A program made the translations under genes and the position numbers. A stretch of DNA of 64,000 nucleotides from Anaeramoeba ignava BMAN (Eukaryota; Protista; Anaeramoebae): assembly GCA_028826165.1 (NCBI GenBank), contig JAPDFW010000083.1, forward strand, positions 285,659-349,658, read 5' to 3'. Positions 31,727 to 50,218 of the stretch are shown here, piece by piece. How positions within the stretch are numbered: the first letter of the stretch is position 1; every line of letters begins with the position of its first letter. The notes under the pieces are model-generated. The model was not told the DNA's origin, did not search any database, and saw nothing but the letters and a program-made list of their open reading frames with translations.

Positions 31727-33888
31727 TTATTTGTCCTTTTCAGTTTTTCTTTTTTTAATTTCATTTATTTCTTCATTTTCTTCATTTATTTCTTTTGTTA
31801 AATTTTTTGAAAAATATTGAAACATTTGTTGTACTAATTTTTTCCATTTTTCTTCATCTTTAAAAGGTAAATTATAAACTTGAGAAAATCCATCATTTTC
31901 AAAAAAAATATTTGGAAAAAGAAAAGGATTTTCATTTTTAGAATGTTCTATTTCTGTAAGTGAAATTTGAATTCCTTTTGGAAAGAAATTATCTTCTTGA
32001 TGTTTATCATCAGAAAATAATATTGCTTTTCTTTTCTTTTTATTTGGATTTTTTGATTTTGATTTTAAATTTGATTTTGGTTTTGAATTTGATTTTGGTT
32101 TTGATTTTAAATTTGATTTTGAATTTGATTTTAAATTTGATTTTGATTTTGATTTTGATTTTGATTTTGATTTTGATTTTGAATTTGAATTTGATTTTGA
32201 TTTTGATTTTGATTTTGATTTTAAATTTGATTTTGATTTTGAATTTTTTGAGATTTTGATTGAAGCTTTAATTCTTGAGATGCTATTTAATAAATAAAAT
32301 CCATTTTTTAGTTTAATAATTTTAATTGAATGCAAAATGTTAACAATATCATATATTCTTTTGAAACATGTTTTTTTTGTTTGATTTGTTTTAATTATTG
32401 TTTGATTTTGTGTAAAATCTTGAATTTGATATATTGTTAATTGATTTTGAGATAATTTTTGGATAATTTCTTGAGTAAGATATATCATATAATTTATTTT
32501 TTTGGTATTTGTTGATTCTTTATTTAGATTCTTTGTTATTGGTGTTTGAAAAATTGTTTGTGGTCTTGGTTCTGAATTTGGATATTTCAGATGAATTTCA
32601 TTTTGATTTTGATTTTGATTTTGATTTTGATTTTGATTTTGATTTTGATTTTGATTTTGATTTTGATTTTGATTTTTGATTTTGATTTTGATTTTGATTT
32701 TGATTATTTTCATTTTGATTTTCATTTTGATTTTGATTTTGATTTTTGATTTTGATTTTGATTTATATTTTGATTTTGATTTATATTTTGATTTTGATTT
32801 TGATTTTGATTTTGATTTTCATTTTCATTTTCATTTTGATTTTCATTTTCATTTTCATTTTGATTTTGATTTTGATTTTGATTTATATTTTGATTTTGAT
32901 TTTGATTTTGATTTATATTTATATTTTGATTTATATTTTCATTTTGATTTTGATTTTCATTTTGATTTTGATTTATATTTTGATTTATATTTTCATTTAT
33001 ATTTTCATTTTGATTTTCATTTTGATTTATATTTTCATTTTGATTTTCATTTTGATTTTGATTTTGATTTTGATTATGATTTTGATTTTGATTTATATTT
33101 TCATTTTCATTTTGATTTTGATTTTGATTTTGATTTAGATTTTGATTTATATTTTCATTTTGATTTTGATTTTCATTTTGATTTTGATTTATATTTTCAT
33201 TTTCATTTTGATTTTGATTTATATTTATATTTTCATTTTGATTTTTATTTTTATTTTGATTTTGATTTTCATTTTGATTTTGATTTTCATTTTCATTTTC
33301 ATTTTGATTTATATTTTGATTTTGATTTTGATTTTGATTTTGATTATTTTCATTTTCATTTTCATTTTGATTTTGATTTAGATTTTGATTTTGATTTTGA
33401 TTTATATTTTGATTTTGATTTTCATTTTCATTTTGATTTTGATTTTGATTTTGATTTTGATTTTCATTTTGATTTTGATTTTGATTTAGATTTTTATTTT
33501 GATTTATATTTTGATTTTGATTTTGATTTTGATTTTGATTTTGATTTTGATTTTGATTTTGATTTTGATTTTGATTTTGATTGAATTCTAATCTGGTTTT
33601 TTTTGAATTTTCAGATTTTGAAAAACGATTTTTATGAGAACTTAAAGAAATAATTTTTTCTAATTTAGTAATAAAAGAAGAAACACCTTTAAATGAATAA
33701 TGTTGAGACTTTTTAGAAACAAAACCAACAGCTAAAAAAACATTTAAAATATCATAACATCTTCTTTTAGAAAATTTATATTTTTTTACTAAATCTTGAA
33801 TTGAAATTTCTTTTTTTTCATTTGATAAAAAATATTCTTTAAATTTTTTTGAATTTTTTGATAAAGAATTTTTTTTTGAACTTTTCAT
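31727..33888 (-). CDS. Atypical E2F/DP-like factor with two winged-helix DNA-binding domains and a long Q/N/E linker
   Basis: KRRCYDILNVFLAVGFV and FKRIYDIVNILHSIKII (RRxYD-type motifs). About 1 kb of hexamer repeat between them, with apparent indels near 32680-32750. Confidence 0.75.
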
Positions 33889-33973
33889 GTTAAAAAAAGA
33901 AAAAAAATGAAAAATATTATTTTGAAAAAAAAAAATTTTCAATTTAATTTTTATAAAAATTTTAAATTGAAAA

Positions 33974-35829
33974 TTAATCTTTTTTTTTAACTTTAGATGA
34001 GAAAAAATGAAATGATTCAAAAATTATTTCTGCAATTTGAGAAGTTTCACACTGAATTACAGCTTTTTCATTTTTGGAAATATCAGGAATAATCAATAAA
34101 ATTTTATCACTTTTCCGAATTCTTGAAATTTCAAAATTGGAAGAATAATTTTGATTGATCAAACGGGAATATTTATTGTCTTGTTTGATTCCAAGTTTGA
34201 ATCTTTTTGGTTCAATTTTTAAATATCCAGTTATAAAATTATCACCAAGCCAAACTGCAATAATAAAAGTCACACCACCATTTTTCTCAAAATGAGGACA
34301 ATAAACATCAGGATTTTGAAGAATATTTTGTTCCGTTAATTTTTTTTGACTGAATATTCTTCTGCTTAATTTTTTAGGTAAATTTTCTCTTTGAAATTCT
34401 GTTTGTTCGAATTTTTCAGTTTTGAAATTTTTCATTCTTGCGTTATTAAATCTTGTTATTGTTTGTGCAATTTCTTCTCTTTGAAAAGGATTATTTGCAT
34501 TAAAATCGAAAACGGTTTTTGATTCACTTGTGAACTCAATTGAAAAAAGACTTGAGTTTTGATCTTTGGTTAAAACTTTTAGTTTTGGATTCCATTTTAT
34601 TCGAAAAAGTCTTGAACCTTCGGAATTTGTAATTGATATTGAAGTTTTATTAACTGAAATAACTGCTTGTTCATTTTGTATTTTATTGTTTTTGGATTCA
34701 TTAATTAAATTGACTTGAAAATTGACTTTGCCTTTTCGAATGTGATTTGTGACTTTATTTTCAATTGATATTTCTTGTGGGATTTCTTCAGATTTTGGAT
34801 TTTGTTCAATGTTTTGTTCTTCTTGTATTTGTTTGGAAGAAAATTGATTCCATTGATTATGTGAAATTGAAATGTAAATTAAATCCAATTGGAATAATTC
34901 TTCAATTTCAATTGGATTTTCTGATTCTTCAACTATTCTAATAAATTGTTGTTTTTTTTTGTGCATGATTTTTGGCATAGAGAGAATTCTTTTAGGTCTT
35001 CTTTGTCGATTTGTTTTTGATTGATTTTTTGATTCATTTTTTGATTGATTTTTTGATTGATTTTTTGATTGATTTTTTGATTGATTTTTTGATTGATTTT
35101 TTGATTCATTTTTTGATTCATTTTTCATTTTTATTGAATGAGATCTTTTTGATTCAAAAAATGATTTTGTTTTTGGTATTATTTCTGTATGTTGTCTTGT
35201 AGGTATTTGTGCTTGTGTTTTTGATGATCTTAATAATTTAGGTTTAGCTTTTTCATCGATTAAATTTGAATTGGAATTCTTTTTAATTTTAATTTTTATA
35301 AATAAATTTTTATAAATAATTTTTATAAATAATTTTTATAAATAAATTTTAATTTTAAATTGATTCTTACATTTGGAGAAGGTAAATTTTCATTTTGAAC
35401 ACTAGAATCACTATTAAAAGCTTGGTCAGTTGTTGATTTATCAAAACCAAATAAAAATTTATCTCTCAATTTAAGCAAAGCATTAAGAACTTGGTCTCTA
35501 GCTTTTGGTTTTTTAGAAAGAAAACTATCCAATTGATTCCAATCAAAATCATCAATTTCAAATTCACCTAAAGCTCTTCTAAAAGCTCTAATATTGCTTT
35601 TTTGAGCAACAAAACTTCGCGTTCGGTTGATTTTTGGAATCGGTTTTTCATTTGGGGATAATTTGTTAATCAATTCACATAAAAGTATTGAATTTGGATC
35701 CATTATATCTTCTTCAGTTATTTTTGCATCTTCCATTTCTTGTTGTATCCATTCTAAACACACTTTCAATTTAGAATGATATGTGAATTCTTTTGGGATC
35801 ATGTTCGTTTGATCGTTGTTTTGGCTCAT
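33974..35829 (-). CDS. Calponin-homology domain protein with C-terminal PH-like regions, 2 exons
   Basis: LEWIQ..DIMDPNSILLCELINKLSP..NIRAF (CH domain). Intron 35279-35370 joins the ORFs in frame. Confidence 0.7.
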
Positions 35830-36368: not shown

Positions 36369-38437
36369 ATGAAAGCAAAACTAAAAAACTTTTTTCTATT
36401 CATTGTCCCAATTTTAGCAGTTGCATTATCAATAATTTTATCAAATTGGAGAGAAGGAAAAGTAAAAGGAACAACAACATTTGGGAAAGAAATTAATGTT
36501 GAAGTTAGAATTGGAGTAAGAGATATTAAGATCGTTGAGAAAGTAAATGGGAGCTCTGAAACTAAAATTATGCTTTTATCAGAAGTAGGAAATCAGTTGG
36601 AATTATCAAGCATTTTTTCAAGTCATTGGACCAAGTTATATCAAATTAATTTGTGGATTGGAATTGCATTTTTGTTCGCAATTCTTCTTAATATTATTTC
36701 AACCTTTTTTAATTTTGTTATGAAATTTTTTGGTTGGATTCCTTCTCTCATTTACACTCTGGGTATTCTTCTTTTTTACTTTAAAAACCCAAATCTTGAT
36801 GATATGCTCTTTAATTCTCAAAGCTCTATTTGGCCTCTTAATCAAGAAGGAAGACTTAATCAATCCCAAATTATGAATCTTTCTTATTCTTTTTTTCTTG
36901 CAATTTTTGGAGCTTTCTCATCCTTGATTTTTTGGTTTATTGCCTTGAAATTCTTGCAAACTGAAAGAGAGAAAGAAAGTAATTTTTTTGTTTTGAATCA
37001 AAAAATCTTTAATTTAAATTCTTTCCAAAAATAATTAATTGAAACTTCAAGAAAAACCAGAAGAAACCCCACAAAAATTAGTACACACCAAAAGTTCAAC
37101 AAATCAACCAAAAAAAGCCCCATTGAAGAGGACAAACTCTCAAAAAAAAACTCAAACACGCACTCAAGGTAAAAAATCAGTTCCAGATTCACAAATTAAA
37201 AAACCTCAAAATAAATTGCAACAAGTTCAAAAACAAAAAATTCAAATCGAAAAGAAATTGAATCAAGAAATCAAAAAATTGAAAGAAGAAAAACGAGCAA
37301 TGGAAGATCAATTAATGGAACTCTCAGGAATGTACGAAGAACTTTCAAAAAAAACTTCACCAGAATTATCAAACAAATCTGGAGATGGAAATACTCAATC
37401 AAATTCAAAAGATGAAAAAATAATTTCAAATGATCAAAACCAAATTGAATCTTTGAAAAAGGAACTAAATTTGAGTTATCAAAAAGTTGAAATATTAACA
37501 AATCGAAATGCAGCTCTCAACAAGAAAATTAAGAAATTCGAATTGGAAAAGATTAATTGGGAAAAAAAAGCGAAGGAATTTGAGAAAGAATTGAATCAAT
37601 TAAAAAATCAAAAACCTACTGCAATACTCACCAATACAACAGGAGGACCACCACCACCAACAGGAGGACCACCACCACCAACAGGAGGACCACCACCACC
37701 AACAGGAGGACCACCTCCACCAACAGGAGGACCACCTCCACCAACAGGAGGACCACCTCCACCAATGGGAGGACCACCTCCACCAATGGGAGGACCACCT
37801 CCACCAAAAGGAGGACCACCTCCACCAAAAGGAGGAGCTCAAAATCCAGCAGGTATTCTTTTTGTTAACCTTTTTCCCTTTTTTATTCTTTAAATCAAAA
37901 CCCACAAATTTAAAACTAGGTCCAATGTCTCTTGATCTTCTTTCTTCAATCACATCTTTTAAAAAGAATAATTTGAGGAAAACCATAATAGACGATAAGA
38001 GTGCACCAAAACTTAAAACAGAAGATAAATCAACACCATCTCCAGTTCAAAAAACCTCAAACACAAAGGCAAACAGTGGTGGTGGATTTAATTTGGCAGA
38101 ATTAGCTTTGGGACAAAGAGGACGTTTAAGAAGAGTTGAACCACAAGAGAATAAATCAAACAGTGGTGGTGGATTTAGTTTGGCAGAATTAGCTTTGGGA
38201 CAAAGAGGACGTTTAAAAAGAGTTGAACCACAAGAGAATAAATCAAATAGTGCAGACGGATCTAATACCACAAAAGCAATTACAAATCAAAGAAACAATT
38301 TAAGAAGAGTTCCACCAAAAACACAGAATAAATCAAACAGTGCAGACGGATCTAATACCACAAAAACAATTACAAATCAAAGAAACAATTTAAAGAAAGT
38401 TCCACAAACTCAAAAGAAAACTTCAGGAAAAAAATAA
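36369..38437 (+). CDS. Predicted 642-aa membrane protein: ~4 TM + coiled coil + (GGPPPP)9 + tandem WH2-like motifs, 3 exons
   Basis: Introns 36979-37051 and 37853-37919 (both GT-AG, phase 1) join three ORFs in frame. WH2 motif DLLSSITSFKKNNLRKT, plus further LRRV, LKRV, LRRV and LKKV motifs. Confidence 0.7.
37639..37827 (+). repeat. 21-bp coding repeat x9 encoding [T/M/K]GGPPPP
   Basis: ACAGGAGGACCACC.CCACCA-type units at exact 21-bp spacing. Confidence 0.95.
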
Positions 38438-38625: not shown

Positions 38626-40392
38626 TAAATGAAATAAGATCTCAAGTTCATCAACAATCCATTTATCATAAAGAACCAGCTAAATAAGTTTGAGCTTCAT
38701 TTGTTCCTTGTTTAATTCCATTAGGTAGATTGTAACTCCAACCAAAATTTGAATAACCAGGTTGTAAATTAGATTTCAAACCAATATCAGCACTTCCAAA
38801 TTCTGGACCATGATTTGAATAAGAATAAAAAAGTGATTTTTGTTGATAACCTTTTTTAATTGTAAATTTATCTGGTTTTCTATCTCCTTTATCATTTCTT
38901 AATGAAAAAATAAATGCATTTGGATCAATAATATGCCCATGATCTTTATCTCTATCTATTTCTCTCCATTTTGATTTATCTTTTGTCCATCCAACTTGAG
39001 TAAAACCTCCAAAAATAAAATTATCTTTTGTTTTGATAATAACTAATGTTTTTCCTTTATTATCAACTGCTTTATGCCAATTTTGACAAGAAAATCCATC
39101 TCTTTTTGCTGAAAATCCTTTTTTCATTTTGAAAAAAAATCATTATCATTTATCCATTCATTTAATTTCTTAACATATTCAATATCTTTAATAATTTCTG
39201 AATCTGAAAAAGTATTTAACAATTCTTTCTCCTTTTGTTTTTGTTTGATTTTTTGTTTCTCATTTTGGATTTCTTTCTTAAATGATAATTTAAGATTTTG
39301 GATTTCCTTTTCTTTTTCTTGATTTTCTGAAATCAAATCTTCAATTTCTTTTTCTTTCTTTTTCATTTCTTTGTTTTTATTTCGAATTTCTTTCTTTAAA
39401 TTGTGATTCTCTTTTCTTTTCAAACTTATTTTCTTTTCAATTTCTTTTTGATTATCTTGAATAACTTTGTTTTGAATATCAACTAAAAAAGATTTGGGAA
39501 AAAAATCAAATTGTTTTAATTTATCAAAATCTTGTTTTGAAATTGAATCTTTATCAAATAATGAAAAAGAAAGGATGAAATAATCTTTTCTTTTCAATTC
39601 CAATTTCTTTTTCTTTCTTTCCTTTTAATCTTGATGAATTAACTCTTTTTCAATCCAATTATTTAAAAATTGAAAAAAATCAAATTGAAAAATTTCTTTT
39701 TTTTCTTGTTTAAATTGAATAAATTTGATAATTTCTTCTTTAGTTAAATTGAATAAATTTTCATTATTTTGAATTTGGGAAAAATTTTGATTTATTAATT
39801 CAAAACATTTTATTTCAATTTCATTTGAATTTAAATTTCGATTTTGGAATAAAAATTGGAAAAAATTTGAATAATTAATTGAATTTGAAATTTTTTTTTG
39901 AATAATTTCTTTCAATAAATTTAATTTAAAATAAATTGAAATTTCCAATAATTGAATAAGATTTTCTTGATTCTCAAAAGAAATATTTCCATAATAAATA
40001 TAACTCAAAATTGATTTCATTTCTTTTTTATTAAATTGATTTAAAAAAATTTGATCGATATGATTTTCTTCTTTTAAAAACTTATTAAAAAAATGAGATC
40101 TTGAAGATAAAATTGATTTATGAACTTTAATTTCAAAAGGATTTGATTTATTCTCAACAAAAATTGAAAAATCTTTAAATGAATTTCCATTTAAAAGGTT
40201 TGAATAATTTTTAATTAAATTTTTTGTTACTTTTTTTTCTAAATTTTTCATTTCATTTTCATTTTCATTTTGATTTTGATTTTGATTTTGATTTTGATTT
40301 TCATTTTGATTTTGATTTTGATTTTGATTTTGATTTTGATTTTGATTTTGATTTTGATTTTGATTTTGATTTTGATTTTGATTATTATTCAT
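38626..40392 (-). CDS. BTB/POZ + coiled coil + TLDc domain protein
   Basis: FKDFSIFV..IKVHKSILSSRSHFF (BTB); RDGFSCQNWHKAVDNKGKTLVIIKT..IFGGFT..AFIFSL (TLDc). Three ORFs linked by homopolymer indels. Confidence 0.8.
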
Positions 40393-40480
40393 TTTATTGT
40401 TTTTGTTTTTGTGTTTTTAAAAATGAAAAAAAAAATGAAAAAAAAAAATCATTTTTTCTTTCTTTATTTTTTTTTAAAAA

Positions 40481-48382: not shown

Positions 48383-50218
48383 TTATCCTTTAATAACTGC
48401 AATTGGTCTAAGTTTCACACATTTCTTTGAAATATTTGCTTCATGACAAGTTTCAACAACTTGATCAACATCTTTATAAGATTCTGGTGCTTCTTCCATA
48501 ACTAATTTTGGAGAAGCAATTCGAATTGAAATATTTTGTTTAGAAAGTCGATCCAAAACTTCTTGAAATCCTAATTTTTTTCTTGAACTATTTCTACTTT
48601 GTGCTCTTCCTGCTCCATGACAATTTTGAACTAGAATTGGTGTTAAATTTTCACTTAAAACAATATAATTGTGATTATCTTCAACTGTGAAATTGTAAAC
48701 ATAATCAATCCCAATTTCTTCATATTCATCCACTTTTATTTCTTTGAAAATACTGTTTTTTTTCAATTTGATTAATTTTTTTGAATATGGAATTTTTTGG
48801 GAATTTGATTCAAAAATTTTATCTTTAATTTTTAATTTGAATGAGGTATTTTTTCTTCGTGTGATTTTGGGTAGAGATCCCAATCTTAAACAAGCAATCA
48901 GAATTGAGGAAATGAATTTTGAGTTTTTGTGTGTGATTTTTGCATAATTTTTATTTGCTTTATAAGTGCCAATTGTATCAATTACTCCCGAAATAAAATG
49001 AGCACAAGATTTTGAGTTTGAAGTGCATAAAATTTGATCAAGATTTTGATACAATTCAAAGAGCTTTTGGGATTTTTGTTTTGATGTTTTCGATTTTGGG
49101 AAAATTTGGGAAAAAATCACTTTGATTTGGTTGATGATAGATTTTTTGCTTTTTGGGTGTTTTCCTTTATTTTTGAAAAGAATATTTAAGGAAGGATTAT
49201 TTTGAATGAAGTTTGGGAAAAAAGCTCCTAGAAGATAGAAAAGAGGAGGGAAATCAAAGGGGGATTTTTTAAAGAAAGAAGGAATTTTTGAAACGGCAAA
49301 AATTTTTTTGGAACTTTTCAAAATTTTTTGGATTTGGGAAAATTTTGGATGAAAAGAAGAATTAGGGGATAAAGAATTAAGGGAGAAAAAATGGTGATCA
49401 GGAGTGGATTTGATGAAATCCGAGGTTTTGTTCTGAAGGAAAAACTTGATAAGGGGAGCTTTTCTAACGAAAAGATTTGAAATTGGTTTCCATTCAAAAT
49501 CAAGAGAAATGGGGTTTAAAGAGGGAACAAAAAAAACAAGACCGCGATGAGAAAGACGGAAGATTTGGGAGATTTTAAGGATGCCGAGATGGGTAAGAAT
49601 AGGGGTATTAGAATGGAAGCAAGTTGAGCCGAAAGTCTTTGTTCATTCCGTCATCTGTTCCCATAAGGAGATAACTCGATGTGCCCATTGTACCTCCTAC
49701 AAGGACAGGTTGACCTGTGAGTTGGTAGTCTATGGGGATGAGGGGATGATGCGGACCAAAAGCTCTTGTGGAGCCTTTGCGATGGACAAGGCAGTTATAT
49801 ATTTTTCCATCGACAAAATGTTTTTCAAATTTTGCAATGTTATGAGAAACGTCATAAATCAAGTTCATATCAAGATCTTCAGGGGAAGCATTGAATATTT
49901 TGGAGAAGCATCTGCGCGTGAGGAACGTGATTATCTGTCTGTTGACCCAAGCGTAGTTTGCAGCTGCGGCCATTGCTTGGAGATAATTTTGGCCTTCTTT
50001 CGACGAGATTCGCGCACATGCTAATTGGCGATCGTTAACGTGTATATTGTCTCTCGCCATTGCTTTTTCCATCTCCACTAATGCGTCTGTTGCTACTTGA
50101 TGTCCTAGTCCGCGACTTCCTGTGTGGATCATCACTGCTACTTGTCCTTCTCGATCCAGTCCCATTTTCTTGGCTGCGAATTTGTCGTATATTTTATCAA
50201 CTACTTGGATTTCTGCAT

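Follow-up and report, generated by a model that had tools for sequence, protein, structure and literature searches.

A gene of Anaeramoeba ignava encodes a 642-residue protein (KAJ5072093.1, here P0001) in which a four-pass membrane domain with a predicted claudin-superfamily fold is followed by two predicted coiled-coil helices, nine proline repeats and a tail that begins with a good long WH2 motif, as judged from motif criteria. The preliminary description of this DNA had proposed a membrane-anchored actin regulator, and the combination of one gene, a claudin-type domain, coiled-coil helices and a real WH2 makes this likely; in our judgement, the tail very probably binds actin. Nucleation, the mechanism then suggested, is unsupported in that form; an elongator of the VASP/WIP type agrees at least equally well with the order of the modules. 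The best reading, which ranks ahead of a Spire-type nucleator, is that of a VASP-like protein, embedded in the membrane, with the putative activities of elongating filaments and tethering their barbed ends; we hold it tentatively, at slightly less than an even chance. The architecture is new, assembled from known modules and represented by one gene in one species.

One gene with three exons

The exons (610 + 801 + 518 = 1929 nt including the stop codon; Table 1) join into a single open reading frame of 642 aa without an internal stop, as had been proposed from three separate reading frames, and the spliced translation is identical in sequence to the database protein KAJ5072093.1 of A. ignava. 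The database name of this protein, "A-type inclusion protein," found no support in any analysis made. Contigs of one public run (X1) skip exactly both introns and carry the two junctions that had been singled out for checking, i.e., 36978/37052 (36978 joined to 37052, side 255 nt) and 37852/37920 (37850/2 joined to 37918/20, side 73 nt). An 864-nt contig covers positions 36709-37645 and thereby connects the end of TM2, over intron 1, with the beginning of the polyproline; by joining the membrane exon to the polyproline it rules out exon 1 as a separate gene and disposes of the earlier reservation about 36369-37034. A second contig starts where the polyproline ends, crosses intron 2 and includes motif 1. 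The full gene length is present on none of the single contigs, and the listed pieces leave 37646-37777 (within the proline repeat) and 36515-36555 unbridged. Because both introns and also the intron of a neighboring gene are skipped, the contigs are most simply read as cDNA. The splice evidence comes from one study, possibly the source of the annotation itself, and contigs are insensitive to a rare intron-retaining form; retention of intron 1, which would encode a 221-aa product lacking the tail, was not seen among the contigs of run X1.

Table 1. Features of the P0001 gene, in positions of the window (the whole stretch of 64,000 nucleotides that was analyzed)
Feature	Position	Strand	Remarks
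Exon 1	36369..36978	+	Residues 1-203; entire four-pass domain, predicted claudin-superfamily fold
TM1	36387..36443	+	Residues 7-25; hydropathy, helix in model
TM2	36645..36707	+	Residues 93-113; hydropathy, helix in model
TM3	36729..36785	+	Residues 121-139; hydropathy, helix in model
TM4	36885..36956	+	Residues 173-196; hydropathy, helix in model
Intron 1	36979..37051	+	73 nt, GT-AG; border between membrane domain and tail
Exon 2	37052..37852	+	Basic linker, two predicted coiled-coil helices, polyproline
Predicted coiled coil 1	37207..37350	+	Residues 256-303; heptads
Predicted coiled coil 2	37438..37617	+	Residues 333-392; heptads
Nine GGPPPP units	37642..37827	+	Residues 401-462; 21-nt period
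Intron 2	37853..37919	+	67 nt, GT-AG; skipped in contigs
Exon 3 to stop codon	37920..38437	+	Low-confidence, likely disordered tail; five L[RK][RK][VT] motifs
Motif 1	37931..38008	+	Residues 475-500; long WH2 of WIP/protist-VASP type, DKSAP extension
Motif 2	38087..38137	+	Gly-led, short, plausibly WH2-like; no profile support
Motif 3	38174..38224	+	Recent copy of motif 2 (87-nt unit, 98% identical)
Motif 4	38267..38311	+	Degenerate; LRRV kept, one bulky hydrophobic residue before it
Motif 5	38357..38401	+	Degenerate; copy of motif 4 (90-nt unit, 88% identical)

A divergent neighbor on the minus strand (35829-33977), whose start codon lies 540 bp from that of the P0001 gene, encodes 587 aa once its GT-AG intron of 92 nt, which the contigs of run X1 also skip, is removed. 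Its product carries a calponin-homology domain at the N terminus (Pfam E 4e-5, under the cut-off); NQSK repeats are present too, and the C-terminal modules are rich in beta structure. It may be a second cytoskeletal gene in head-to-head orientation with that of P0001, an arrangement that may also be due to chance.

Elsewhere in the window, two open reading frames with overlapping ends (31727-32818 and 32722-34023, both minus strand) carry long NQ or SK repeats and RRxYDIxN motifs, which we take to be E2F/DP-like. Coding stretches for BTB-BACK and TLDc, which do not share a frame, are located at 38669-40416 (minus strand), where the pile-up of many similar contigs of run X1 suggests a large paralogue family. 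An RtcB tRNA ligase at 48386-49642 (minus strand) contains an intein, for which a weak LAGLIDADG-like match was obtained; its presence fits the genus, as Anaeramoeba is reportedly intein rich (PMC10710043). Among IMG/VR sequences, eight contigs (L001-L008) contain uninterrupted actin-like open reading frames of 359-379 aa; five actin-like frames aligned to that of L005 were 70-88% identical to it.

The membrane domain and its relatives

The four hydrophobic segments in a claudin-like layout that had been noted from the sequence are upheld by hydropathy and by a predicted model with claudin-superfamily matches, and residues 1-203 are accordingly assigned a predicted claudin-superfamily (PMP22/claudin/TARP/DUOXA) fold. 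The model, based on a six-sequence alignment (pLDDT 83, pTM 0.77), has the claudin-fold layout of four membrane helices and a sheet composed of four loop 1 strands and one loop 2 strand. Structural matches were obtained with DUOXA1 (Z 14.3, rmsd 3.3, 188 aligned residues), MP20 (Z 13.5), TARP (Z 13.2) and claudin-15 (Z 12.4); for a predicted model, Z values near 13 are just modestly over the helical-bundle background. The best 12 rows of the structure comparison all represent the claudin-superfamily fold, and the first unrelated row follows at Z 10.0. Foldseek retrieved DUOXA1 with an E value of 5e-6, and the Atlas rows for the membrane domain include clarin and claudin, with all feature matches below 0.9.

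A four-helix bundle with a five-stranded sheet, taken for P0001 from the model, is common to claudin, PMP22, TARP, DUOXA and clarin proteins, from which P0001 differs by an identity of only about 10%, the lack of a Pfam assignment and of cysteines, and an actin-type tail of 440 residues. Strict claudins carry a W-GLW-C-C signature in loop 1. P0001 is not a claudin in this strict sense, since it contains no cysteine (one to four in each of the five relatives described below), though W27 and G49 are kept and are invariant across the six-row family alignment. For the membrane domain and the five relatives, Pfam returned nothing assignable (best claudin-type E 0.32-0.38, for single members), and a sequence-profile search of the PDB with the membrane domain gave no match. 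Because of the claudin fold, the Lys-rich N terminus and sequons in loops 1 and 3 (N60, N164 and N170), an N-in/C-in topology with both termini in the cytoplasm is probable.

A HMMER search over 1.84 billion representatives (E <= 0.001) recovered six proteins, i.e., P0001 and five others of 198-215 aa, three from A. ignava and two from A. flamelloides. These five (P0002-P0006), all from Anaeramoeba, make up a small family of claudin-fold tetraspan proteins that stand alone and have no Pfam assignment. The tail is present in one of the six family members found, and P0001 forms a sequence cluster of its own. A word-index search restricted to proteins with lengths of 357-2000 aa recovered P0001 alone among 2117 candidates, which is weak evidence by itself, and a metagenome scan produced 212 pattern matches, none of them a confirmed relative. 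The nearest relative is P0002, whose membrane domain is 50% identical and which branches as sister with support of 98/98; the membrane-domain branch of P0001 is the longer of the two (0.86 versus 0.32). Because the C-terminal end of P0002 coincides with the position of intron 1 in P0001, the comparison suggests an origin by duplication of a tetraspan gene, with two exons added to the 3' end of the duplicate.

Coiled coils, proline repeats and WH2-type motifs

The coiled coil announced in the preliminary description corresponds to two long predicted helices with coiled-coil heptads; in the single-sequence model they span residues 249-305 and 323-389, with hydrophobic residues at 69% and 76%, respectively, of the a/d positions in the best registers. 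Nine GGPPPP units, likewise as described, were counted in the translation. Their proline runs are four residues long, one short of the profilin consensus xPPPPP (PMC7407642), which speaks against an elongator, but five copies of the same unit are found in A. ignava P0009, a protein that is WAVE-like from its C-terminal WH2 and acidic-Trp end.

Five L[RK][RK][VT] anchors are located at residues 489, 540, 569, 598 and 628, with a spacing of 51, 29, 29 and 30 residues. Shuffles of residues 467-642 contain 0.067 anchors on average (n = 20000), and three or more occurred in 1 of 20000. A sixth, anchor-like LKRT at residue 228 has no preceding helix. The claim of five WH2-like motifs thus holds for the anchors, which are above chance, whereas the motifs themselves amount to one clear, two plausible and two degenerate WH2 motifs. 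They represent three independent types, with DNA identities of 98% between motifs 2 and 3, 88% between motifs 4 and 5, and 61% between motifs 3 and 4.

Motif 1 is a good long WH2 by motif criteria. In the Pfam WH2 search that had been recommended, it was the only one of the five to score, and this below the cut-off (18.5 bits as a peptide, E 0.0016; cut-off 23.1); in the PDB, nothing but the WIP WH2 matched it at E <= 10 (2a41_C, E 0.44). Its hydrophobic residues stand at -12, -11, -8 and -5 from the anchor leucine, with identical spacing in the WH2 of the A. flamelloides VASP protein P0016 (KAJ6235557.1), and the alignment of the two scores 59 (shuffles 17.5 +/- 3.7; 0 of 2000 reach 59). With the monomer-binding peptide of Dictyostelium VASP, as given in PMC3034019, it has 9 of 16 residues in common in a comparison by eye.

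Motifs 2 and 3 are plausibly a short WH2-like motif, one being a recent duplicate, with four bulky hydrophobic residues at -13, -11, -8 and -6 and a low hydrophobic moment (0.25-0.32). Neither scores against Pfam WH2 (E <= 10), and motif 2 has no WH2 match in the PDB; its only matches there, artificial alphaRep repeats, were judged to be due to chance. Motif 2 aligned to the second motif of P0016 scores 27 (shuffles 21.9 +/- 3.8; 235 of 2000 reach 27). Over the 14 positions that precede the anchor, motifs 4 and 5 contain just one bulky hydrophobic residue, the I at -7, compared with three or four in all eight comparison motifs; the hydrophobic, amphipathic helix is missing, and they were rejected as WH2. 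Neither has a Pfam match, and motif 4 has no PDB match. A Pfam miss leaves room for actin binding, because two of three WASP-like controls (P0010 and P0014) are likewise unscored.

Residues 467-642 are likely disordered according to the single-sequence model and contain 34 K/R and 13 D/E; the last 40 aa contain 10 K/R and 1 D/E, and exon 3 encodes no Trp. The acidic Trp tail is absent, as stated previously, and a WASP/SCAR-type Arp2/3 activator is excluded by the basic, Trp-free C terminus. A search with the tail yielded 17 other matches, most of them through the proline repeats, of which the VASP-, WASP- and WAVE-like ones (eight inspected) were kept as comparators; the Atlas search with the tail gave no usable match.

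The order of polyproline, long WH2 and Gly-led second motif is common to P0001 and P0016. With the Ena/VASP proteins of A. flamelloides and Dictyostelium, P0001 has in common a near-identical long WH2 after the polyproline, corresponding to the WH2-like GAB, and a Gly-led basic second motif. Motif 2 occupies the position of the VASP FAB, with a similarity to the second motif of P0016 that is not above that of shuffles, and the gap of 34 residues between motifs 1 and 2 is within the 18-40 residues given for VASP GAB-FAB linkers. In contrast to Ena/VASP, P0001 possesses the four-pass membrane domain and upstream coiled coils, lacks EVH1 and a C-terminal tetramer helix, and carries its second motif twice, with two degenerate copies behind it. 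Pfam found no EVH1 (WH1) in P0001, compared with E values of 2e-13 and 3e-14 in the A. flamelloides VASP proteins P0016 and P0028, and the low-confidence single-sequence model contains no helix after residue 389 that could represent a VASP-type tetramer coil, the C terminus being polar and basic. In P0016 and P0028 themselves, a strong WH2 is accompanied by a second motif that is WH2-like, and GGFGG repeats precede the C-terminal helix. A VASP-module search gave two matches among 116 candidates, neither of them P0001 nor any A. ignava protein, so that a descent of the tail from a VASP gene is unsupported. The N-terminal region of WIP/verprolin has a long WH2 with a D[RK]SAP extension, as in motif 1, and in WIP a second short WH2 follows after a Gly-containing linker (PMC7407642), comparable to the plausible motif 2 of P0001. 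WIP differs in being soluble, with its WH2 motifs placed N-terminally before the proline-rich region and a WASP-binding segment at its end.

Possible functions and known systems

As an elongator and tether, P0001 would load profilin-actin onto its GGPPPP repeats and pass actin monomers to filament barbed ends by way of the first WH2, and the later basic motifs may help to keep the filament at the membrane. Clustering via the coiled coils or the membrane domain would replace the EVH1 targeting and tetramer domains of VASP, with the bilayer anchor and the actin module belonging to the same chain. According to PMC3034019, any WH2 with a filament-binding motif, when clustered on a surface, supports processive, capping-resistant elongation, the rate of which is set by the WH2 affinity. 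PMC5753033 describes surface-clustered WH2 with proline-rich sequence as polymerase and tether, with unoccupied WH2 domains tethering barbed ends, and together with PMC3873893 it presents clustered WH2 proteins as Arp2/3-independent polymerases and tethers. Besides the short proline runs, the presence of the fusion in one of six family members counts against this elongator, since a function thereby gains no support from conservation.

If P0001 were instead a tandem-WH2 nucleator in the membrane, a coiled-coil dimer would align actin monomers on motifs 1-5 and seed a filament without Arp2/3. The repeats of Spire and VopL measure roughly 30 residues, and the spacing of the five anchors, which are well above chance, is similar; the four bulky hydrophobic residues retained in motifs 2 and 3, the two predicted coiled-coil helices upstream and the absence of an acidic-Trp tail also agree with nucleation, and the Pfam misses are compatible with binding given the unscored P0010 and P0014. 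We nevertheless consider it unlikely: four of the five motifs have no Pfam WH2 score at E <= 10, motifs 2 and 4 are without a PDB WH2 match, motifs 4 and 5 are without the leucine pair that belongs to the amphipathic helix, and the spacing of about 30 residues follows from recent DNA duplication. The copies differ mostly by non-synonymous changes (2/2 and 7/8 changed codons), which are small numbers with many conservative R/K swaps. For WIP, the leucine pair is reported to provide most of the affinity (PMC7407642), and WH2 arrays can also cap and sequester (PMC7183766). A membrane-to-cortex anchor or capper resembling HPO-30 or ponticulin, whose basic tail would bind filament sides or ends without net assembly, is improbable to a similar degree. 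The basic, probably disordered tail would suit it, the tail of HPO-30 binds filament sides and caps barbed ends as a dimer (PMC10411975), and barbed ends can be tethered by unoccupied WH2 domains (PMC5753033), but it leaves unexplained why nine proline repeats stand right before a high-affinity-type WH2, i.e., in the loading arrangement of an elongator.

It is less probable still that a tetraspan duplicate captured actin-regulator exons to give a young, weakly constrained chimera with a tail of little function. One species and one record, the long membrane-domain branch compared with P0002, the absence of cysteines that all five relatives possess, the recent tail repeats and the decayed appearance of motifs 4 and 5 would all be in agreement with such a chimera; however, 642 codons have stayed open across two spliced introns in a region of very high AT-richness, and a divergence of 50% from the sister represents time enough to decay, yet motif 1 is intact. 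As the activities of these readings overlap in known WH2 proteins, the split between them is soft. The wider proposal of a multi-pass, claudin-fold protein that nucleates as well as elongates actin via tandem WH2, works without an adaptor between bilayer and filament and shapes a particular Anaeramoeba membrane, e.g., that of the symbiont-housing pockets with their opening at the cell surface, is also quite improbable. The symbionts of A. ignava sit in pockets at the cell membrane (PMC11550330). A role of P0001 at these sites is speculation.

The preliminary description had also held that eukaryotic WH2 nucleators are not integral multi-pass proteins; this stands insofar as no report of a WH2 was found for the membrane-linked cases, but HPO-30, ponticulin and class I formins narrow the novelty. 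Plant class I formins are transmembrane actin assembly factors with one membrane helix; they act via FH1-FH2, and Pfam found no FH2 in P0001. With Spire, Cobl and VopL/F, P0001 has in common several L[RK][RK]V motifs at distances of about 30 residues and a possible dimerization; it differs in that only one of its five motifs is a clear WH2, that no KIND or VopL-type C-terminal domain was seen, and that its anchor is integral and multi-pass. Elongators and nucleators based on WH2 are as a rule soluble proteins, which adaptors, lipids or GTPases recruit to membranes. HPO-30 of Caenorhabditis elegans has a layout like that of P0001: it is claudin-like, passes the membrane four times and directly regulates actin through a disordered tail at its C terminus. 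The difference lies in this tail, a binder of the WAVE complex and a filament capper (PMC10411975). The likeness is set by description, and the passages used of PMC10411975 mention WH2 for WASP-family proteins only; HPO-30 and P0001 likely arose independently. Ponticulin of Dictyostelium is an integral membrane actin nucleator (PMC2290967), but it differs from P0001 in its size of 17 kDa and its glycosyl anchor, and membrane helices are not apparent in it. A WH2-bearing multi-pass membrane protein was not found in searches of the open-access literature, and the terms claudin and transmembrane have no occurrence in the term-searched passages of the Anaeramoeba genome paper (PMC11550330).

The weight of these observations is limited by their origin from a single gene of a little-studied amoeba, by the lack of conservation and by an actin activity that is predicted. 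If the elongator reading is true, P0001 would be the natural counterpart of a polymerase known from reconstitutions in which it is clustered on the surface of beads and bilayers. Beside HPO-30, it would be the second example, probably of independent origin, of a claudin-like protein that gained a direct actin-regulating tail.
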